A stretch of DNA of 60,561 nucleotides, filler included. It is 10 parts of 10 records of this genome, joined end to end, with 100 filler letters (N's around TTAATTAATTAA, not from the genome) between each part and the next. Parts side by side here need not be neighbours in the genome. Positions count along the whole stretch, not along the records: positions 7,153 to 12,936 come from SRR31147125_301220; 9 more parts are not named here. One strand, written 5' to 3'. The position numbers and the translations under genes are program-made. Positions 7,053 through 51,729 of this stretch are shown here, piece by piece. The notes beneath the pieces are model-generated. The model searched no databases. It was not told where the DNA came from and saw only the letters and a program-made list of their open reading frames with translations. How positions within the stretch are numbered: position 1 is the stretch's first letter; each line of letters opens with the position of its first letter.

Positions 7053-7152
7053 NNNNNNNNNNNNNNNNNNNNNNNNNNNNNNNNNNNNNNNNNNNNTTAA
7101 TTAATTAANNNNNNNNNNNNNNNNNNNNNNNNNNNNNNNNNNNNNNNNNNNN
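7053..7152. other. Artificial contig spacer (N44-TTAATTAATTAA-N44), first of nine
   Basis: Identical six-frame-stop linker at 7053-7152, 12937-13036, 18172-18271, 23344-23443, 29062-29161, 35787-35886, 41136-41235, 46366-46465 and 53088-53187. Gene content and composition change abruptly across each. Confidence 0.99.
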
Positions 7153-7566
7153 CCCCTTATGAGCGTCCCGGTGAACGAGAAATCACGGACGTACAGTGCT
7201 CCGAGTGCGGCAAGCCGTGTACGGTGCCCTTCCGGTTCGTTCTTGTTCTGTGCACCGAGAGGAGGCGGCCTCTCATACCGCACCAGCCCAACACAAGGAC
7301 GCCCTGTCTTCTGCAATGATTGCTTTGCTTCACGACGTGGCGGTGGCGGTGGCGGGCCTCCACCCTCACGAGATCGTTATGATGATCGTCGGGACGACCG
7401 TCGTGATGACTACAAGGATGATCGCTACAGGGATGATCGTTACCGAGACGACCGTCGTGACGATAAGGATGATCGCTACCGTGACGATCGCTACCGTGAC
7501 GATCGCTACCGTGAGGATCGTCGTGACGATCGTCGTGAGGATCATCGTGACGACCGCTATCACTGA
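7153..7566 (+). CDS. Eukaryotic protein (5' partial): CxxC-x17-CxxC zinc ribbon plus Arg/Asp-rich low-complexity tail; one intron at 7235-7286
   Basis: Removing the 52-nt GTTCGT...CTCAT...CAG intron joins REITDVQCSECGKPCTVPFR to PTQGRPVFCNDCF, giving exactly 17 residues between the two CxxC pairs; followed by (RDDRY/RDDRR)n and TGA. Confidence 0.85.
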   Translation, partial: PLMSVPVNEKSRTYSAPSAASRVRCPSGSFLFCAPRGGGLSYRTSPTQGRPVFCNDCFASRRGGGGGGPPPSRDRYDDRRDDRRDDYKDDRYRDDRYRDDRRDDKDDRYRDDRYRDDRYREDRRDDRREDHRDDRYH

Positions 7567-7640
7567 ATGCTGTTGTGGGTGTGGGAGGTGTGAGGAGCAA
7601 ATGAAAAAATGATCTCGCACACATTTCCCCTGGGACAGTG

Positions 7641-10096
7641 ATGAAGAGGGCGTTCTTGTCCGGATGGGGTGCTGCCCTGCTGGGAAAGGTAAGGCATGCC
7701 CTCTCAACGAAACAAAACAAAACAAAACAAAACAAAACACACAGCAGGGAGGAATCATGCGTTCTCTGACGACCACAGCAGCCCCTGTACTTACATGCTT
7801 CAATCCAGCAGACGGAACCGTATCTCGAGAGGTGAGTTTGTACAGTGGAGGCAACGAACTCGTGAAGGAAACCGCACAGGTCCCAATGGACACCTACGAT
7901 ACCGTGCGTATCAAATATGGGAAGGCCCGTCAGGCACAGAAGGAATGGTGTAAGGTATGGAAGGATAGAGAGAGAAAGGGATGGAGGGGTCGGACGGATC
8001 ATCGTGGCACAAGGTTCCACTTGAGGAGCGCATGGAGGTCCTCAAAGCGTTCTCGGGGCTTCTGGAACAACGTGGTGATACATTGGCCGAAGTCCTGACG
8101 CTGGACATGGGCAAGCCTATCGAGCAGGTGCGTTGGAGGTGAGAGGGACACTACGGCCACACGGTTACACGAGGCACAAGGCGAAAGCGGAGATTTCTTT
8201 CACACGACGTCGCATCGCGTTCTTTCTTGAACACACAGCCAAGGTGATTGTTGGCACCGTGCACCACGGAAGCCAACGCATTCGGCTTGATCCTCAGGTC
8301 TGTGCCCCATGCACCGTTAAGGGCGATGAGACCAAGGGCGAGGTGATCACATATGAACCATTGGTACGATCTGGGTAGATCGTTCCTCCCACCCTCCTTC
8401 CTTCCTTCCTTTCCTCTGTGCAGGGTGTTGTTGCGAACATATCTGCATGGAACTACCCGTATTTTGTTGGATCGAATGTTTTTATCCCTGCTCTTCTGAC
8501 AGGGAACGCCGTTCTCTACAAGGTATGACGGGTTTGCCAATTGATCAATCGGTTCGTCGATCACCCGGATGTACACACTAGCCATCGGAATACGCTGTGG
8601 GGACCGGATTGGCCATTAGGGATCTCCTTCACGAGAGTGGAGTTCCACAGGACGTGTGTGAAGTTGTTGTCGCCCAGAGCTAACCCTTCGTGTCAGGTGT
8701 TTGCGACGGCAATTGGTACGGGCGATGTGGGAAGAATGGTGATGATGCAAGCTGTGGATGGGGTCTTCTTCACAGGTAGATGACTTCAGCTTCCCAGCAC
8801 GGGCTATCTGATGCTCGTGTGCTCGTTACAGGATCAATGGCCACTGGAAAGAAGATCGCTGAGGCTGTAGGACGTCGAATGATCAAGATGCAACTAGAAC
8901 TGGGGGGAAAGGACCCCACCTATGTGTGTACGTGGACAAATGTGTCCTCTCTTAGGTTGTATTCGACACCACGGTAGGTGATGATGCGGATCTAGAAGAA
9001 GCTGCTACCGCTCTTGCGGATGGTGCCATGTACAATGCGGGACAAGGCTGTTGGTTCGCTCGATTCTGCTGAGTCTCTTCCTTGTGTTGGTGATCCTTCT
9101 CCCGCCATACAGCTCCGTTGAGCGGATCTACGTGCACAAGAAGGTGTACGACGCATTCATGGAAACATTTCTCAAGGTGGATGGGGGAAAGGAGAAAGTG
9201 ACCCATCCCTCACACCCTCATACGTAGGAGGTTCGGGCCTTCAAAGTGGGCACACCCAGTAATCCGTGTGCGTGGGTGATCGCACGGATGTACAAGCTCA
9301 TTAACTCGTTCTAGCCACATATATCGGGCCCCTGGCACGAAAAAGCCAACTTTCTGTGTTAGAAGAACAGGTAAACGATGCAGTGAAAAAGGGGGCCAAG
9401 CTTGAGTGTGGAGGGAGGAGGATTGCCAACAACACGGGGTTCTACTTTTCACCCACTGTCCTGAGTGCCGTCAACCACTCTATGGACGTGGTATGCAGGG
9501 GGAGGTGGATGCCCGTGGGGGATTCGTGATGCCCTTGGACAGATGCACGAGGAATCGTTTGGACCCATCATCGGAATTCAAAGCGTTCAAAACGATGCCG
9601 TGTGTTGCATTTGTTTCCTTGTTCTTCATCCCACCCCTTCGCAGGACGCTATAATCCTGATGAATGACACAAAGTATGGCTTAACAGCAGGTTCGGGGAT
9701 GTTGTTCTTTGAAATGTGATGCTGATCAAGTTTCTGCATGACAAGGGGTCTTCACGAAAAATCCGATGCGTGCACGGGCAATCCTCTCCGAGGTAGTGCT
9801 GTGGTGCATGAATGACGGGGGTAACTGACGGTCGGAAAGGTGGATGCAGCGACGGTGTACCGCAACTGTTGCGATCGTGTCTCTCCATCTCTTCCCTGGT
9901 TTGAGAGGGAGGAAACGCAACACAGAATAGACTACCCTGATTCACATGTGTAGGAGTGGACGAAAGCACTCGGGAATCGGGGTGACCCTGGGAGAAGATG
10001 GCATTCGTACATTCCTTCGTCACAAGGTGTTTGCCTTGCTGTTATTTCTCGTTCTAACAGGGCCCAATCTGTCAGGCGTGGCATCTTCAGCCATAA
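7641..10096 (+). CDS. NAD(P)-dependent aldehyde dehydrogenase, 485 aa, 20 exons, with a putative organellar targeting presequence
   Basis: GT-AG introns at 7689-7744, 7832-7879, 7955-8013, 8128-8180, 8244-8297, 8364-8423, 8523-8581, 8654-8696, 8776-8831, 8928-8977, 9054-9112, 9177-9227, 9268-9314, 9491-9542, 9600-9644, 9691-9745, 9793-9839, 9899-9953 and 10027-10075. The spliced 1458-nt frame is open and contains EPLGVVANISAWNYP, YKPSE, FFTGS, LELGGKDP, catalytic NAGQGCCS, EESFGP and YGLTAG. Confidence 0.92.
7710..7738 (+). repeat. (AAAAC)n microsatellite inside ALDH intron 1
   Basis: About six tandem AAAAC units. Other microsatellites in predicted introns: (CTTC)n near 8397-8410, (CA)n 10699-10717, (GGTT)n near 31891-31906. 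Confidence 0.9.
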
Positions 10097-12936
10097 TCAT
10101 GCATGTTTTCGTCGCCTCCATGGAAGAAGATCGGTGAGGGAGCGCTAGTCGTCGTAATAGTTACGAATACGAATGAAATCAGTGCCCTCACTACCCATCA
10201 CACCTTGTCTGCATGAATGTGCGCGACCAGTAGACAGAGAGCGGCCATGGACACGGCATACATACACAAGTAGGTAAGATGAAAAGCGAAAATTACCATG
10301 CTGAGTGCACACAGGAGCAATGCAATGCAAACGACAGTTCGTTTGGGTGGAAGAACCTTTGTCCGCGTGCCAAAATCAGAGTAGCCTCCTCTTATGAATC
10401 TATGTGCGCACCTTTCGAGCAACAAGAAGATGTCCGATAATAGGAAGGGCCAAGAACGTGTGTAGGTCAATGGGGTGATGCGTAGAGGGCCATCCTTCAA
10501 ACGAGGCAAGCGTACAGGTTCCTGTGTAGATCAAGACCACGAAGTAGAGGCAAAGCAAGGTGTGGCGGTAGTTGACGTGAGAGTCTTGAGGATCACACAC
10601 CGGCGAAGGGGATCGGTGGGAATCATCGTCATCCGACACAGGAGTGAACTCCATGGCCTTACAAATCAAGCAAAGGATCACATCCAAATCCGCAGACGCA
10701 CACACACACACACACACCTGACGAAGCCGATTACGTCGTCCAATCTCCATTCGTACCTTTGTACCCATCGCCATTACGCATCTGTTCCTTTCCGTACTTC
10801 ACGTCAACATACCACACAATGAGCCTGTCCCGTCTCCACAAGTTCCTCTTCAGCCACAAAGTCCTCACGAGGGGTAGAAAGGCGTCTGAGGCGTACGCCG
10901 GACAATGCAACTCGAGCAATGATAATCTGAAGGGGACCGAGATCAGTCAATCGTGATTCGTTTGGTGCTTTCTCCGTTCTCAACAAACCAAAAGAACAGC
11001 ATAGGGATGTAGGAGAGTCACTACGAGCATAACAACGATACCAAGGAGGCGCAGACGGGAGAGGATCGTTGGAGGGCCACCCGATTCTCGCTGTGGGGTC
11101 ACGAGATTGCTATTGGGCTGATACGTATGTTGGCAAACACCGACACGATGATTGAAAAGGGAACGCACGGAGTATTCAAGCTGTTTCCAGAGAGAACAAT
11201 ACAACAGTTCGCTGACCTGAAGAATCATCACCATTGCTATCATTGCCATCATCACCAATACTGCACGCACTTCCATAACACCACGCATACACATCATCAG
11301 GAGTCCCGTAAGTCCAACAGTAACAAAAATAACCCCTGCAGGCAAAAACCACCTAAACGAACAAGAATGTGTCAAATTCTCAAGACACAACTGCATCCTA
11401 CGAACGGAGGGGGAAGAGGTCCGTGTAGCGCTGCATCGTCACGTTGCATGGGACGTATGGAATGAAAGAAGGAGTCCCACCTGAGAGAACACGCAACACG
11501 TCACAACATGCACACATCCCGGCCCAATTACAGACGTTGCAGCACCCGGATGCAGGAGATAGGGTACAGAAGTGGCAATAGCGGCAATGACAAAGACCCA
11601 TATATGGGCACGAAGGACAGAGAGGGGGAAGGCATGGATCCTTCGCGACACAAGGTAAAGATCTATCGGGCAACTCCGTCATGAAGATGTCCATCCGAGC
11701 ACATGCCACGCATACAAACCTGAATGCCCAGAACACAGAGGAGAAGAACAAATGCGGCAGGAAAGATCATAATCCCAAAGGATCTGTGGATGATGAGACA
11801 AGGAAGGAAGAGTTACGTTGCGTGCACCAGCCAGCACAAACCGCAAAAACAATCCCATGCTTCGACGGAACGCAAAGGTTAGAATGACCGAAGAGTCACA
11901 GGCAGGATCGGACAGAAGAATGGCTTCTACGCCGTGAGGCGAGGACTGAGAAAACCGCATCTACGCAGGCAGATACAATACTTGGTATCCAAACAGGACA
12001 GAGGGAACAGGACCGTACGTCGACATGCGAGGCAAGTGATAGGAACTCCTCATTCGAGATACCACCACGAACGTACGTGATGGCTGGGAAGAGAGGCTCA
12101 GATACTGAAAAAAAAACACGAATAAGCGGATCAGTGGATCAACGCTGGGCCAAAGCGAACCAGGCCCGCGGCAATTCTCTTCATGACGCAAAACATGTGC
12201 ATAGTTCCTATCACGAAGTGTTGAAAGGGAGAGGCGTTGCATTGTCGCATGCCCAGCAGGGAGTACAACCCGTTCTGCCCCCAGGTCTGTGTACCGTCAA
12301 AGCGCTCAGCAGCAGGGACATGGTACGACAGCGAATGCACGTCACGCACTGACAGGCCACACGAATGGAATGACGGGCATTTCAAATAATTGCGCCAGAA
12401 GGAAAGCCCGGTCATTGCGCATGGGAATGCTGTGATAAGATGACTGAAGGTGAGGGGTGGAAAGAGGGTACAGATCAACCATACTCTAATCGAATCGCCT
12501 TAACAGATTTCAAGTATGATGGCTGGAGGCACAGCACACGGAGACCTTCTCCTTTTACCAAAGAGCGTTGAGGGGCAAGCGGGGAGTCCAGTCCAGGGAA
12601 CCTGCCAAAGCATTCTTCTCTTCAACACGTCTTCCTCACCCGCCCTGCACATACTGCACATACCAATCGTACTCTCGAATCGGTGAGGTGCTTCCTCGCA
12701 AGGATACAACAATAGACCCTGGTGGGAGAGAGGTGATGAGAAAGAAACTCTCAAGACTTGACGGAATCATCTGGAACCAACCAAGGGTGAATGAATCGGG
12801 AGGATGAGATTGATATGTACCTCAAACGAAGCGGCGGCACTAATTGACTCAAGACGTAGCATGGGCCCATCTACCCAGATCACTGGTGGCTGCATTCGTG
12901 AAAGGAATGAGACGACGACAGAAAATTCATCCTGCA
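10097..12936 (-). CDS. Intron-rich multipass membrane protein (5' partial), possibly the C-terminal half of GPI inositol-deacylase PGAP1/Bst1
   Basis: Minus-strand GT-AG introns, e.g. 10717-10658, 10411-10357 and 10203-10145, join ...HVNYRHTLLCLYFVVLIY...HTFLALPIIGHLLVARK-VLPPKRTVVCIALLL...TYLCMYAVSMAALCLLVAHIHADK-RSLTDLLPWRRRKHA*. The TM pattern and basic C-terminus resemble Bst1/PGAP1 as recalled. Not every internal junction was resolved. Confidence 0.5.
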
Positions 12937-21425: not shown

Positions 21426-21478
21426 CTATTTGTTGGATGTGGTGAAACATGTCAAAAACCTGGAAAATGAGGTGCACT

Positions 21479-23323
21479 ATGAAAGGATGGATAGGAAAAA
21501 TTCTTCGTGTCGATTTGACGACGGGGGTAATACACGATGAGGCGTTGGAGCATCAGGTTGCCAAAGACTATATCGGCGGCAGAGGTATTGGGATCTATTA
21601 TCTCAACAAGGAGATGGATCCCAAAAGCGATCCCCTCTCTCCGGAGAATCTGATGGTGATGATGACAGGCCCCCTGACGGGAACCGGCGCCCCCACGGGC
21701 GCAAGGTATATGGTCATGACAAAATCTCCGTTGACCGGGGCCGTGACCTGCTCCAACTCCGGCGGGCAGATGCCCAGAGACATGAAACGGGCCGGGTATG
21801 ATGGGATTATCTTTAAGGGGAAATCGGAAAAGCCGGTATATCTCTGGATTGATAACGGAAAAGCCGAGCTGAAAGACGCGTCGCACATCTGGGGAAAGAC
21901 CGTTCCGGAAACCACGGATCTTCTGTTGGCTGAAACCGACCCCAAAGCACGGGTGGCCTGCATTGGTCCGGCCGGAGAGAATCTAGTGCTTTTCGCCGGG
22001 ATCATGAATGAGAAACATCGTGCCGCAGGTCGATCCGGGGTGGGGGCGGTTATGGGCTCTAAAAATCTAAAAGCAGTGGTGCTTGCCGGAAAAGACAACA
22101 TTCCCCTGGCCCATCCTGAGGATTTTAAGAGATTTAATCGAACCATTTTGGATCAGTACACCAGTGATGCAAAAAAAACACCTGTGGGGCTCACCATCAA
22201 TGGAACCGCCGGTGTTGTCGCCGTTACCCAGGAAAAAGGAATCCTTCCCACGAAAAACTGGCAACAAGGGGAGTTCGACGGATGGGAAGATATCCAGGGG
22301 ACGACCCTCACCAAGAAGTATCTTGTGAAAAACAAGGGATGCTTCGGATGTCCCATCAAGTGTGCCAGACTTACCAAGGTGTCGGAGCCCGGCTTTGAAG
22401 GGCAAGGCGAGGGGCCTGAATACGAGACGGTCTACGCCATGGGCTCCAACTGCATGATCGACAATCTGGCAGCCATCACCAAAGCCAACTATCTATGTAA
22501 TGAACTGGGGATGGATACCATCACCATGGGGGCCACGGTGGCCAGCGCCATGGAGCTGGTGGATCGCGGAATTTTGAGTGAAGCCGAGGTCGGCAGATCC
22601 CTGAAGTGGGGGGATGGTGAAGCTCTGGTGGAATTGACCCGGCAAACAGCGTATCGAGAAGGCTTCGGAGATAAACTGGCAGATGCCAGTTATCGAATGT
22701 GCGCATCCTATGGTCATCCGGAACTGGCCATGGTCTCCAAAAAACAAGAGTTCCCCGGCTATGAGCCCCGGGGATCCAAGGCCATGGGACTGGCCTATGC
22801 CACTTCTCCCATTGGAGGATCGCACATGCGAGGGGATCCGGCGTATTTCGAGATTTTCGGCACCACCTTTTCCATGGATCCTTTGAGTACCAAAGGGAAG
22901 GCCGGCCCGACAAAGCGAATCCAGGATCTGTCGGCCATTGTGGATGCTGCAGGGCTATGCATCTTCTTTGGTGCCAGAATGCTTGCCGAAAAAGACAGCC
23001 GCATGGCACCCGTCGGGATGTTGACCTATCTCAACACCGCCACCGGTGCCGATTACACGATTGAAGAGCTGATCCAGGCTGCCGAGCGCATCGTCAATGC
23101 CGAACGCATGTTTCTTGTCAAGGCAGGATTTGACAGAAAGGATGACTCGCTTCCCAAACGCATTACCGATGACCCCATGCCCTCAGGACCTGCAAAGGGG
23201 GAAGTGTGCGATCTTCAAACCATGCTCGATGAGTATTATGACGTACAAGGATGGGATAACAACGGTATTCCCAAAGTGGAAACCCTCCGAAAGCTTGGAT
23301 TGTCGGATCTTGATGCGGCATGA
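21479..23323 (+). CDS. aor: Aldehyde:ferredoxin oxidoreductase family (tungsten/molybdo-pterin)
   Basis: MKGWIGKILRVDL, KSPLTG, AAGRSGVGAVMGSKNLKA, CFGCPIKC, EGPEYET, GMDTITMG and DAAGLCIF; RBS GAGG before ATG 21479. Confidence 0.93.
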   Translation: MKGWIGKILRVDLTTGVIHDEALEHQVAKDYIGGRGIGIYYLNKEMDPKSDPLSPENLMVMMTGPLTGTGAPTGARYMVMTKSPLTGAVTCSNSGGQMPRDMKRAGYDGIIFKGKSEKPVYLWIDNGKAELKDASHIWGKTVPETTDLLLAETDPKARVACIGPAGENLVLFAGIMNEKHRAAGRSGVGAVMGSKNLKAVVLAGKDNIPLAHPEDFKRFNRTILDQYTSDAKKTPVGLTINGTAGVVAVTQEKGILPTKNWQQGEFDGWEDIQGTTLTKKYLVKNKGCFGCPIKCARLTKVSEPGFEGQGEGPEYETVYAMGSNCMIDNLAAITKANYLCNELGMDTITMGATVASAMELVDRGILSEAEVGRSLKWGDGEALVELTRQTAYREGFGDKLADASYRMCASYGHPELAMVSKKQEFPGYEPRGSKAMGLAYATSPIGGSHMRGDPAYFEIFGTTFSMDPLSTKGKAGPTKRIQDLSAIVDAAGLCIFFGARMLAEKDSRMAPVGMLTYLNTATGADYTIEELIQAAERIVNAERMFLVKAGFDRKDDSLPKRITDDPMPSGPAKGEVCDLQTMLDEYYDVQGWDNNGIPKVETLRKLGLSDLDAA

Positions 23324-47837: not shown

Positions 47838-49742
47838 TTAGGGTGTGTACCAGATGGGGGATGTATACGCTCTTTCCTGTATGGTGGCAGAATAGTCCTT
47901 GGGGTGATCAACACCCAGGGCTACGGCATCATACAATGAATGCCGCGGGGTGGGGATCTGCAGGACCCGGACATAGTAGAAGGCTGACACCTTGGGATCA
48001 AAATCAGGGTCTGTCCAGACCGTGGCAAGCTGGGCATCGCCAATGGTGTCTTCCCAGGTGGCGTTCTTAAGATTTACCGTATTCCCCACCGGTTTGACTT
48101 TTCCGTATTTGCCCACCTTTCGGTTGTCCGAGAGGGCCACGTTATAAATTTTCTCCTTGGGAAACCCCTTACCATCCACCCAGCCCTTGATCACCTGGAC
48201 ACGATCCAGGTTGGCATGGTTGGGGTCTTTGACCGCCTGGATGAGAAACTGGGGGGCTTTGCCTTTGGGGGCACGGGTTAAATCACCGCCCATGGGCACG
48301 CCTTTTTCATAACCGATCCGGGCCAGACCTGATGCATGGGCGTCTGGTTCTTCAAAATCCCAGCCCCCGAAAAACCGTACCCGAAGCCGAGTGCCTGTGG
48401 TGGCATAGGTTTCTTTGCGTTTGAATGCGTCAAAAATGGCTTCACGGGTGTTTTCTTCCGCCCAGACCGCAGCCAGGCCCGCCGCCCCCATGTCCATGCC
48501 AAAGCTTTGGGGCGGAACAACTACTTTTTTGGGATCTATGGTATTTTCAGGGGTGGAATCCAGGGCCATCTTGCCCCAGAAATTGTCCTCTTCAGCAGAG
48601 GCCAGGCCGGTATGGGAATCTGTGGAGCCGATCATGCCGAATTTATAGGGGTTGGCGCCGATCCGCTTTTCAATGGCAAGCCCCCGCATCAGCCCTGTCC
48701 GCGTGTAGTCGCCTGCTTTGGCTGCGTGCTCTTCATGTTGTTCTAAAAATTTTTTGTCTTCTTCACTGAGTTTCTGGATCAGGGCATCCCCGAACAGGCA
48801 TAATTTTTTGTTGTCTCCGGCTTCGATATAATGGTCATAGGTTTCATAATCGGCAAATTCGTCCGTGGGAGAGAGCATGGGGTGGGTTTCGGAGTCCCCC
48901 TTGATCTGGGTGACTTCCACCACTGTTTCCCAGCGCATCCTGGATTCGGCATAGGCCTTTGAAATGGGCTTGCCGTCACTGTCCGCCACCGGGAACATCA
49001 ATCCCTTGGAAATATTCTGGTTGTGGGGGATGGCCACGAAATTGGCCCCGGTGCTTTTGTTTGTCTCGCCCAGCCATTTCCAAAGGTCCTCGGGTTTGGG
49101 GCTGTCCAGTGCCGTGTACGGAATAAATTTTTCCCCGGTTGCCTTGCCTTCCCGCATGAACACCACCCTGTGGAGGTTGGCGCCGTCCGGCGTTGAACTC
49201 CATTCCCACCCTAGAAAGGTGGTGAATCTGCCCGGATCGTTGTGGCGTTCGGCCGCATCCATGATTTCGCCCCACATGGTCTGGCCCACCTCCGGAGAAA
49301 TCAGATCCGGTTCCGGTTCTCCCTGATTGACCTGACGGATAAGATCTCCGAACACCTTGTGAACTTCTCCCTGTTCAAACCATTTGGCATATTTTTTACC
49401 TGTGGGCGTCCCCGCAACCACGGGGTCCCCATTGATCAGGGCCGGAATCACCCCCATATACTCCCCGTGATCCGCCACCACCAGAAAATCAAGGGGGGTG
49501 TTGATCTGGATTTTGGCCCGGTGAAAGGGGTGGACAACCGGTTCGCCCTTGGCATACCTATAGGCGGTATCCGGGTCTGCTGTCCTGTTCTCCAAAAGAA
49601 AGGCATCCGGTGAATAGGATGTGTGGAGATGGGTGTCCCCGAAGAACACCTCCGTGTTTCTCACCTGCCCTGCCTGGGCCGGCAGGCAGAAGGCAGATAC
49701 GGCAGCCGCTATTGCAGCAAATCGGATTAAATAAAAGAACAT
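47838..49742 (-). CDS. Secreted DUF3604 family protein (PHP-like metallohydrolase fold)
   Basis: Signal peptide, FFGDTHLHTSYSPDA, DFLVVADH, NLHRVV, IPHN, GSTDSH and IQERAYTSPIWYTP. Confidence 0.92.
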   Translation of the reverse strand: MFFYLIRFAAIAAAVSAFCLPAQAGQVRNTEVFFGDTHLHTSYSPDAFLLENRTADPDTAYRYAKGEPVVHPFHRAKIQINTPLDFLVVADHGEYMGVIPALINGDPVVAGTPTGKKYAKWFEQGEVHKVFGDLIRQVNQGEPEPDLISPEVGQTMWGEIMDAAERHNDPGRFTTFLGWEWSSTPDGANLHRVVFMREGKATGEKFIPYTALDSPKPEDLWKWLGETNKSTGANFVAIPHNQNISKGLMFPVADSDGKPISKAYAESRMRWETVVEVTQIKGDSETHPMLSPTDEFADYETYDHYIEAGDNKKLCLFGDALIQKLSEEDKKFLEQHEEHAAKAGDYTRTGLMRGLAIEKRIGANPYKFGMIGSTDSHTGLASAEEDNFWGKMALDSTPENTIDPKKVVVPPQSFGMDMGAAGLAAVWAEENTREAIFDAFKRKETYATTGTRLRVRFFGGWDFEEPDAHASGLARIGYEKGVPMGGDLTRAPKGKAPQFLIQAVKDPNHANLDRVQVIKGWVDGKGFPKEKIYNVALSDNRKVGKYGKVKPVGNTVNLKNATWEDTIGDAQLATVWTDPDFDPKVSAFYYVRVLQIPTPRHSLYDAVALGVDHPKDYSATIQERAYTSPIWYTP

Positions 49743-49787: not shown

Positions 49788-51729
49788 TTAGGGGGTATAC
49801 CAGATCGGAGACGTATACGCCCTTTCCTGTGTGGTCATGGGGATCTCATCCGACATTTTTACATTGTATCGCTTGGCATCGTAGGCCGTCCACCTCGGGG
49901 TGGGGATCTCAATGACCCGGGCATAGTAGAACGCCTTGAGGGACGAATCAAAGTCCGGGTCCTGCCATACCGCGATCAGCTCGGGATCGCCGATTGTATT
50001 GGTCCAGGTGGCGTTTTTCACATCCACGGTGTTTCCGACCCCAGGCAGCTTGCCATTTTTTCCCATTTCCCGTTTATCTGCATCTCCCCAGGCCACGTCA
50101 TAGACTTTTTCATGGGTCTTATTGTCCTTGTCCAGCCAGCCTTTGACAATCTGGATCCGGTCCAGATTTCCGCTGTAAGGATCTTTCAGAGCCGCCACCA
50201 GAAATGAAGGGGTTTTCCCTTGGGTGCTCGGGTCAGATCGCCGCCCATGGAGATGCCCTTGCTGTATCCCACCCGGCCGGGAGCGCGTTTTAAGGCATCG
50301 GTGGCCTCAAACTCCCATCCGCCGAAAAACCAGACCGTCATCCTGGGGCCTGTGCTGGCGTATACCTCTTTTCGCTTCATGGCATCAAAAATGGCTTCTC
50401 TTGTGTTTTCCGTGGCCCAGACCGCGGCATACCCGGAGGATACCTGCTCCCAGCCAAACCAGCGGATGTCGCCTATTTCTCCGATCAGTTTTTTCCACCG
50501 GTCTTTTTCAGGTTCTTTGCCGCTGTGTTTGCCGAAAAAGTTTTCCTCTTCAGCTGTGGCAAGGGAGGTGTGGGAGTCGGTTGACCCCACCATGCCGAAT
50601 TTGTAAGGATTGGTGCCAAGCTTTTCCTCAAGCATCAGGCCTTTTTTCAAAGCCTCCCTGGCATATTCATACTGGAGCATTTCATTTTTTTTGGGAACAG
50701 GGCCAAGATTGGCCTTATCCCAGATTTCATAACCGGCAAATTCGTCATTGGGTGACAGAAAGGGGTGGGTCTCGCCGTCACCTTTCATCTGGGTGACTTC
50801 GTACAGGGGCTCCCAGCGGATACGGGTTTTGGCATAGTCTTTGGTAATCGGTTTTTGGGTGGCCGGGTTTACTTCCGGGAACATGATCCCGTTGGAGAGG
50901 TTCCCGTTGTGGGCCAGGGCCAGGACCTGGCCGCCGGTTTTATCCTCGAATGCCGCCATCCATTTCCACAGGTCTTCAGGGTTCATGCTGTCTTCTGCCG
51001 TAAAGGGAAGCATCTGTTCTGCCTCATCTGCGCCGCAGCGGTACAGCACATTTCTGTGCAGATTGTCTCCCCCCGGGGTGGGGGTCCACTCGTACCCGAT
51101 AATGGTGGTGAATCTGCCCGGATCATTATATTTTTCAGCCGCCTCAAGATATTCGTTCCAGATGTTTTTAATAAAGGTCTCATCGGTCAGGACTTTTGGG
51201 ACATTGCCTTCAGTAAATTGCTGGATAACATCCATGGTGGCCATGAGCGCGGTTTCACCGCCTTTGGCGATCCTGTCGTGCCAGTCTTTGACCGTAGGGT
51301 CCCGCAGCAGGTTGGGATTCCCGTTGATGATTTCCTTCATGGCGCCCATGGCATCGGAATGGTCGGCAATGACCAGAAAATCCAGGGGTCGGGACAGCTT
51401 GAGGCGCTCCCCGTGGGAGGCTGTCACCTCTTCGCCCCTGGCGAACCTGTAGGCCGCCTCCGGGTCCAGGGTGACGCCGAAGGCCCTGGCATCAAGGGAT
51501 AGGGCCGTGTGCAGGTGGGTGTCGCCCCAGAGCACCTTTGTGGGGTAGTTCTGGCCTGCGTATGGGGAGTAGGGCTTTTTTTAAACGATTTTCTTATGCT
51601 TTCCTTATCACTCCCGATAATGCTGACATCGTCACAGATGCCGGTCCCGGCGACAAGCAAAGAGAAAATGAATGCAGTGATGCCCATTATCATCCTGAAA
51701 CGCCAGGCAGTGATTTTTTGATCATTCAT
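49788..51729 (-). CDS. Second DUF3604 paralog (apparent frameshifts near 51575 and 50215)
   Basis: Leader 51729-51575, core LWGDTHLHT...GSTDSH, tail TQERAYTSPIWYTP; both shifts at homopolymer runs. Confidence 0.88.

Follow-up and report, generated by a model that had tools for sequence, protein, structure and literature searches.

The 60,561-base stretch of DNA analyzed here (the window) carries, on the second of the 10 contigs of which it is composed, a gene for an aldehyde dehydrogenase (ALDH) that is divided into 20 exons by 19 very short introns. It is clear from our results that this gene is real, that it is spliced, and that it belongs to a microbial eukaryote, and yet the subfamily in which its product falls is overwhelmingly bacterial. 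We consider it probable that this is a nuclear gene of bacterial origin which was filled with introns at a later stage.

The evidence for splicing comes from the only two public runs that match the stretch, X1 and X2, both from one sample of one study and neither listed as RNA. About one-third of the sampled words of the stretch were matched in each run, as would be expected for an exon-only library. All of the X1 contigs over the ALDH gene consist of exons only, and 15 listed GT..AG joints in them lie, exactly to the base, at predicted introns, skipping 48, 59, 53, 54, 59, 43, 56, 50, 59, 51, 47, 52, 45, 55, and 49 nucleotides (nt), respectively. There is one further X1 joint, which probably belongs to one of the four introns outside this set (7689-7744, 8364-8423, 9793-9839, or 9899-9953). 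Two joints at masked repeats (7699-7749 and 8378-8420) were left out of the evidence either way, and the comparison was made on assembled contigs rather than raw reads, in those parts with X1 or X2 cover. The X2 contigs cross the introns unspliced; a complete intron is contained, for example, in each of those at 8222-8372, 9186-9381, 9452-9602, 9637-9787, and 9899-10067. We infer that X1 is of the complementary DNA (cDNA) type because its contigs are exon-only and because their depth contrasts between a neighboring gene (806) and the ALDH gene (about 7-34). A first reading of the window from its letters alone (the sequence-only reading) had proposed that the junctions be checked against transcripts, and the X1 contigs do join exons at 15 of the introns it predicted. 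Residence in a eukaryotic genome, as opposed to contamination, is further indicated by the spliceosomal nature of the introns, by a GC content of 0.527 in exons and 0.516 in introns, and by the presence of an expressed neighbor 23 nt upstream.

The exon-intron model was derived from homology (Table 1). Three-frame translation of 7601-10200 gives ALDH-like peptide pieces whose frame changes from one piece to the next. An open frame is in itself no evidence, because the 530 GT..AG pairs that could delimit introns of 35-90 nt allow about 3e28 stop-free paths between the ATG start codon at 7641 and the TAA stop codon at 10094-10096; hence, the longest exon (9317-9490, 58 amino acids [aa]) was used as a query and retrieved full-length PF00171 proteins. 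Protein-to-DNA spliced alignment over 7601-10200, guided by the proteins P0003 and P0004, placed 18 GT-AG introns in the interval 7787-10090. P0003 and P0004 led to different introns at two sites, and X1 joints decide both: the P0004-guided introns 7820-7867 and 8298-8342 are ruled out by the joints at 7832-7879 and 8244-8297, respectively. With the addition of the N-terminal intron 7689-7744, there are 19 introns of 43-60 nt, 13 in phase 0, 4 in phase 1, and 2 in phase 2, and their removal leaves exons of 21-176 nt (about 77 nt each, the shortest internal one being 40 nt) and a coding sequence (CDS) with one terminal stop, at an intron density of ~13 per kb of coding sequence. The sequence-only reading had arrived at the same number, type, and size range of introns, the same phases, and the same CDS length of 1,458 nt. 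If intron 1 is unused, translation could begin at the ATG at 7757.

The predicted product of the spliced gene is an intact aldehyde dehydrogenase of the PF00171 superfamily. The 485-aa protein was compared with A1, a profile made from nine subfamily members that all carry PF00171; the match, of 716.7 bits, extends from position 2 to position 453 of the 455 in the profile, and 148 of the 154 invariant columns are kept. The ALDH motifs WNYP (160), KPSE (184), FTGS (233), ELGGK (257), GQGCC (288), and EESFGP (388) are all in place, as the sequence-only reading had stated, together with AWHL and the two long motifs that it had singled out, and single exons match ALDH models of NCBIfam. Following the ALDH2 literature, we assign the catalytic Cys, the general-base Glu, and the oxyanion Asn to these motifs, as well as the GSxxxG region that binds NAD. 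The enzyme is predicted to be NAD(P)+-dependent. This degree of preservation also bears on whether the gene is an artefact, that is, a mis-assembled or degraded bacterial gene or a pseudogene in which the supposed introns were simply chosen to open the frame. The ease with which a frame can be opened here and the mixture of bacterial contigs in the window both speak for such an artefact, but it would have to produce 15 independent X1 joints that are base-exact at sites derived from homology, an intron-bearing form that recurs in X2, inserts that begin with GT and end with AG in 19 of 19 cases, and a protein with nearly all of its invariant residues intact, and on the evidence of the contigs we find this scarcely credible.

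Residues 1-30, encoded by exon 1 and by 14 codons at the start of exon 2, are basic, contain no acidic residue, and resemble a presequence. The bacterial homologs align from residue 31 onward and have no counterpart to this extension, which may possibly represent a presequence of the mitochondrial type.

The subfamily to which the protein belongs, marked by NISAWNYP, WNCCDRVSP, and KAWHL, is uncharacterized as well as overwhelmingly bacterial. A scan of its members against NCBIfam found no model at its cut-off, the best curated model being that for GabD2-like succinate-semialdehyde dehydrogenase (NF006916 / PRK09407) at 377-384 bits against a cut-off of 521 bits, and the closest solved structures reach only ~268 bits. 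It is also very large: profile and single-sequence searches each returned at least 8000 candidates, and when each prokaryotic species was represented by one genome, no fewer than 593 loci were found, in Burkholderiales, Verrucomicrobiota, Cyanobacteriota, Bdellovibrionota, and other taxa. Many proteins are 57-61% identical to the window protein over ~455 aa, among them metagenome proteins and named bacterial ones such as a protein from a metagenome-assembled genome (MAG) of Polyangiales. In a metagenome scan of JGI contigs with the 58-aa exon, relatives made up 92 of 597 stretches; among the 80 of these that were kept, the top identity was 69%, and neither a near relative nor a cousin with introns was present. 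The closest exon match, at 69%, is to the P0001 group (524-569 aa), which was considered as eukaryotic kin and set aside on finding that a member of the cluster is a Deltaproteobacteria MAG protein encoded on a 184-kb contig. P0001 and P0150-P0153 contain an acidic insert of 70-110 aa with a conserved SSDTDPE-like motif, situated at a variable loop where exon 6 of the window gene lies. Another JGI protein, P0263, is 5578 aa long and has the subfamily domain at 1379-1802, in three stretches. Searches of the ESM Atlas with P0276 and P0260 found generic ALDH clusters only, one of which, with ciliate members, is a possible lead.

The profile score of the window protein is also what one would see for a core bacterial member of the subfamily. 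Given this affinity, transfer from bacteria into the eukaryotic lineage or an ancestor of it, followed by intron gain, appears to be the likeliest reading of the sequence comparisons. In a quick tree of 60 rows under the C20 model, the window protein pairs weakly with P0196 (SH-aLRT, the Shimodaira-Hasegawa-like approximate likelihood ratio, 86) inside the bacterial core. A careful tree was built under LG+G4 with a smaller set of 41 rows, from which 19 of the original 60 had been removed: the long-branch representatives, the outgroups, row P0284 (EukProt Trinity), and a number of bacterial rows that were redundant. Here, the window protein lies in the core bacterial polytomy (support 85/93), apart from both Dictyostelium, which stands weakly beside a Bdellovibrionaceae protein, and a supported clade of Mesostigma, Chlorokybus, P0276, and P0282.

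There are, nevertheless, a number of considerations that count against this reading. The subfamily does have eukaryotic members, namely, Dictyostelium firmibasis KAK5577730.1, Chlorokybus and Mesostigma from EukProt, and one EukProt transcript, and it also includes two further proteins with presequence-like N-termini. Eukaryotic relatives are under-sampled as well, since the queries used to find homologs were either bacterial-like or the single 58-aa exon. In the careful tree, the pairing with P0196 is lost and no starred clade surrounds the window protein, and no bacterial donor group can be named from the trees. When the six eukaryotic or eukaryote-like rows are held together under LG+G4, the log-likelihood is 16.8 lower and the arrangement is unrejected by the approximately unbiased test (p-AU 0.326); when this comparison was made with the quick tree, the constrained topology was in fact better than the free one (p-AU 0.749). 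The A1 profile was made from the best matches of the window's own exon, which favors the score of the window protein. Both runs, the presumed cDNA run X1 included, are labeled "DNA?", and among 37 open reading frame (ORF) fragments of contig 2 outside the ALDH gene, none matched a partner family of the pathway suggested below for the bacterial members.

Because a clade of the six rows is unrejected, a private and recent transfer is not shown, and the data can also be read as those of an old eukaryotic gene that entered once and early, either with the ancestor of mitochondria or through transfer in ancient times, and then descended vertically with many losses, in which case some or many of the introns would be old. 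The occurrence of members in Amoebozoa and streptophyte algae, in addition to the two presequence-bearing proteins, is in keeping with such a history, as are the N-terminal extension found in all of the other eukaryotic members, as in the window protein, and the outcome of the constrained trees. On the other hand, the free careful tree puts the eukaryotes in three places, LG+G4 tends to draw long eukaryotic branches together, and the eukaryotic distribution known so far is very patchy. Moreover, identity to the window protein is 57-61% for bacterial proteins versus 39-48% for the other eukaryotic members, and the latter score 434-591 bits on A1 as opposed to 716.7. On balance, we regard an old eukaryotic gene as rather unlikely, although it is the alternative that deserves the most weight. 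Several claims of the sequence-only reading can be judged in this light. Its view that the subfamily is known mainly from bacteria holds for the named close relatives, all of which are bacterial, and has to be tempered by the existence of eukaryotic members. The phylogeny it called for, now run, put the window protein in the core polytomy and neither found nor rejected a broad eukaryotic clade. Its proposal of lateral acquisition is thus supported in part, by the bacterial affinity, and its further claim that all introns were gained after transfer holds only if the ancestor was bacterial.

The introns themselves provide some indication of how they may have arisen. All 19 are GT-AG, 14 of the 19 have G at +5, and the branch-point-like motif YTRAY occurs 11-24 nt before the 3' end in 9, with a tenth having it only at -41 and the other 9 lacking it. 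Nine of the 19 junctions lie at AG|G, compared with 2.4% of CDS positions (p 2e-10); the AG|G sites of the whole CDS are distributed over phases 0/1/2 as 24/7/4, a distribution that mirrors the 13/4/2 of the introns. Exon lengths are much more uniform than expected by chance, with a standard deviation of 30, versus 67 for random cuts (P 0.0003). This pattern fits a process of intron gain at protosplice sites in which exon size sets a limit. An introner burst, in which the introns would be recent copies of one family of mobile elements, might be suspected from the narrow length range, the very high density, and a mean pairwise intron score slightly above that of shuffled sequences (11.02 vs 10.42 +/- 0.16). 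However, the maximum similarity of any intron pair is 24, against 16-25 in 30 shuffles, so that no pair exceeds the controls; pairwise comparison of the 19 introns found no common termini beyond the splice signals; and intron GC equals that of the exons. The lack of copy-like pairs makes a recent burst very unlikely. Three introns (7832-7879, 8244-8297, and 9600-9644) are multiples of 3 nt with no in-frame stop, so that their retention would leave the frame open, and simple repeats are found in intron 1 ((AACAA)n, 6.8 copies, at 7706-7739) and intron 6 ((TCCT)n at 8395-8411).

Under the reading that we prefer, that of a bacterial gene filled with introns after its arrival, the gene would have passed from bacteria into a eukaryotic lineage, with or without an earlier eukaryote as intermediary, a short basic N-terminal extension that may serve as a mitochondrial presequence would have been added, and U2-type introns would have been acquired at AG|G protosplice sites until the exons measured ~40-180 nt. 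A more specific version, which we offer tentatively and think more doubtful than not by some distance, is that the host is an unsampled protist with a very compact genome in which introns fill genes up to an exon-definition ceiling (~13 per kb, exons of ~77 nt, AG|G), and that the gene is a comparatively recent arrival that gained its introns rapidly, to saturation, by a route other than introners. A comparatively recent arrival is suggested because no other eukaryotic member comes as near to the bacterial consensus as the window protein does. If it is true, the gene would be a natural experiment on the origin of introns without transposon copies.

The ALDH gene lies on contig 2 (7153-12936; SRR31147125_301220), which is a eukaryotic contig within a mixed eukaryote-plus-bacteria and mostly bacterial assembly, and it is the gene that flags this otherwise concealed contig. 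The 10 contigs of the window are joined by N-blocks around the spacer TTAATTAATTAA, flanked in each case by two runs of 44 N, at 7053-7152 and eight other places. The contigs with long ORFs are bacterial and encode Mur ligases, ABC and TRAP transporters, and a TonB receptor, whereas contig 2 has no long ORF across the region of the ALDH gene. No ribosomal RNA, other Rfam family, or transfer RNA gene was found in a scan of the whole window, and when 80 ORF fragments from contigs 2 and 6 were scanned against Pfam, a single match was obtained, to a zinc finger and below the threshold. When translated, contig 6 and the segment 10148-12936 appear noncoding or of no known kind; contig 6 (29162-35786) does contain long ORFs of 364 and 337 aa without a Pfam match, the translations of which are odd-looking. 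The sequence-only reading had suggested that the host might be anaerobic in view of co-occurring anaerobe-type contigs, but that signal is the aldehyde:ferredoxin oxidoreductase on a bacterial contig (Table 1) and says nothing about the eukaryote, whose own contig contains nothing that bears on anaerobiosis.

Upstream of the ALDH gene, the only neighboring ORF (7153-7566) extends for 411 nt without an intron and shows a weak match, below the cut-off, to a treble-clef zinc finger, followed by a long tail of RDDRY/RDDRR repeats. The X1 contig over it has the depth of 806 mentioned above, and an X2 contig has an insertion of one 15-nt repeat unit after 7499. From the end of the upstream transcript contig to the ALDH start codon (7618-7641), there are 23 nt, a gap that indicates a compact genome.

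Table 1. Positions of the ALDH gene, its introns, and other features in the window
Feature	Position	Strand	Details
ALDH gene, start to stop codon	7641..10096	+	20 exons, 19 introns; 1458-nt CDS, 485 aa
Exon 1	7641..7688	+	16 codons, MKRAF...; from sequence; alternative start ATG 7757
Intron 1	7689..7744	+	56 nt, phase 0; from sequence alone; alternative acceptor 7747
Intron 2	7832..7879	+	48 nt, phase 0; spliced alignment and X1 joint skipping 48
Intron 3	7955..8013	+	59 nt, phase 0; spliced alignment and X1 joint skipping 59
Intron 4	8128..8180	+	53 nt, phase 0; spliced alignment and X1 joint skipping 53
Intron 5	8244..8297	+	54 nt, phase 0; P0003-guided alignment and X1 joint skipping 54
Intron 6	8364..8423	+	60 nt, phase 0, pyrimidine-rich (TCCT)n; both guides; repeat 8378-8420 masked
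Intron 7	8523..8581	+	59 nt, phase 0; spliced alignment and X1 joint
Intron 8	8654..8696	+	43 nt, phase 0; spliced alignment and X1 joint
Intron 9	8776..8831	+	56 nt, phase 1; spliced alignment and X1 joint
Intron 10	8928..8977	+	50 nt, phase 1; spliced alignment and X1 joint
Intron 11	9054..9112	+	59 nt, phase 2; interrupts the catalytic GQGCC motif region; spliced alignment and X1 joint
Intron 12	9177..9227	+	51 nt, phase 0; spliced alignment and X1 joint
Intron 13	9268..9314	+	47 nt, phase 1; spliced alignment and X1 joint
Intron 14	9491..9542	+	52 nt, phase 0; spliced alignment and X1 joint
Intron 15	9600..9644	+	45 nt, phase 0; spliced alignment and X1 joint
Intron 16	9691..9745	+	55 nt, phase 1; spliced alignment and X1 joint
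Intron 17	9793..9839	+	47 nt, phase 0; spliced alignment; outside the 15 listed joints
Intron 18	9899..9953	+	55 nt, phase 2; spliced alignment; spanned by an unspliced X2 contig
Intron 19	10027..10075	+	49 nt, phase 0; spliced alignment and X1 joint
TAA stop	10094..10096	+	X1 contigs run on to ~10151-10225 (3' untranslated region)
Upstream gene, 3' part	7153..7618	+	ORF to TGA 7564-7566; X1 contig end at 7618
Aldehyde:ferredoxin oxidoreductase (AFOR_N + AFOR_C)	21449-23323		bacterial contig, beside a TRAP transporter
Two adjacent DUF3604 genes	47838-49742 and 50186-51535		bacterial contig

For the function of the bacterial members, gene context provides a plausible explanation. Sixteen metagenome loci reached 50% identity or more across a minimum of 400 aa, and the top 14 of these were inspected; in 7 of the 14 (L086, L089, L097, L109, L113, L115, and L116, of which L115 and L116 are near-duplicates), genes for an iron-containing alcohol dehydrogenase (Fe-ADH) and for Peptidase_C26 and/or a glutamine synthetase-like (GS-like) protein lie directly upstream of the ALDH gene. 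One protein, P0258, is a fusion of Peptidase_C26 and ALDH, and another, P0259, is a fusion of DUF480 and ALDH. A gamma-glutamylation pathway has been proposed for ethanolamine in Streptomyces, with SCO1612 as its predicted aldehyde dehydrogenase, in the part of the report drawn on here (PMC6529630). Since the neighbors and the Peptidase_C26 fusion of the bacterial members match the logic of such pathways for amines and amino alcohols, these members most likely oxidize a gamma-glutamyl-amino-aldehyde to the acid, by the usual chemistry of a Cys thiohemiacetal with Glu as general base. For the eukaryotic enzyme, a gamma-glutamyl-amino-aldehyde substrate is a lead only. The broader implication is that an uncharacterized and very abundant bacterial ALDH subfamily can be linked to gamma-glutamylation pathways.

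Among known systems, those of Escherichia coli PuuC, which we take to be a gamma-glutamyl-aldehyde dehydrogenase, and of SCO1612 resemble the bacterial members in that the latter adjoin genes for a GS-like ligase, an alcohol dehydrogenase, and a C26/glutamine amidotransferase (GATase) hydrolase. They differ in that the eukaryotic gene is alone on its contig, and on the PuuC model NF007352, whose cut-off is 850 bits, P0004 reaches no more than 243.6 bits. The GabD2-like enzymes (NF006916 / PRK09407) share the PF00171 fold family and give the top curated score, but this is below the cut-off, and they are no equivalog. Dictyostelium firmibasis, Chlorokybus, and Mesostigma have the subfamily motifs and an N-terminal extension in common with the window protein, but they are only 44-48% identical to it and are found elsewhere in the free tree.

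With respect to the introns, the most intron-rich genomes have 6-7 introns per kb in the portion of the source cited here (PMC3174169), so that the ~13 per kb of the ALDH gene is about twice their density. There are few settings in which every intron is arguably a gain, and bacterial-type genes residing in eukaryotes are one of them; such genes therefore bear on how and where introns arise; if the transfer were dated and the host genome recovered, the ALDH gene would become a clean data point on both the rate and the rule of intron gain. A useful point of comparison is the bacterial alpha-amylase gene of Agaricomycotina/Basidiomycetes, which, as far as the cited part of that report goes, has 8-22 introns (mean 13.3), well over the genome average, explained by gain at protosplice sites under an exon-size limit (Da Lage et al. 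2013, PMC3584928). Within the same part of the report, the two genes are alike in being bacterial-type enzyme genes in a eukaryote that are full of short introns, in the small variation of intron size, and in the absence of any identifiable donor DNA for the introns; for the amylase, the host clade, an Actinobacterium donor, and the history of gain and loss are known from many species (PMC3584928), whereas the ALDH gene is a single copy for which transfer is inferred and in which AG|G is found at 9 of 19 junctions. As a gene of bacterial type that is full of introns, the ALDH gene is striking but not unprecedented, and the alpha-amylase gene is its closest precedent.

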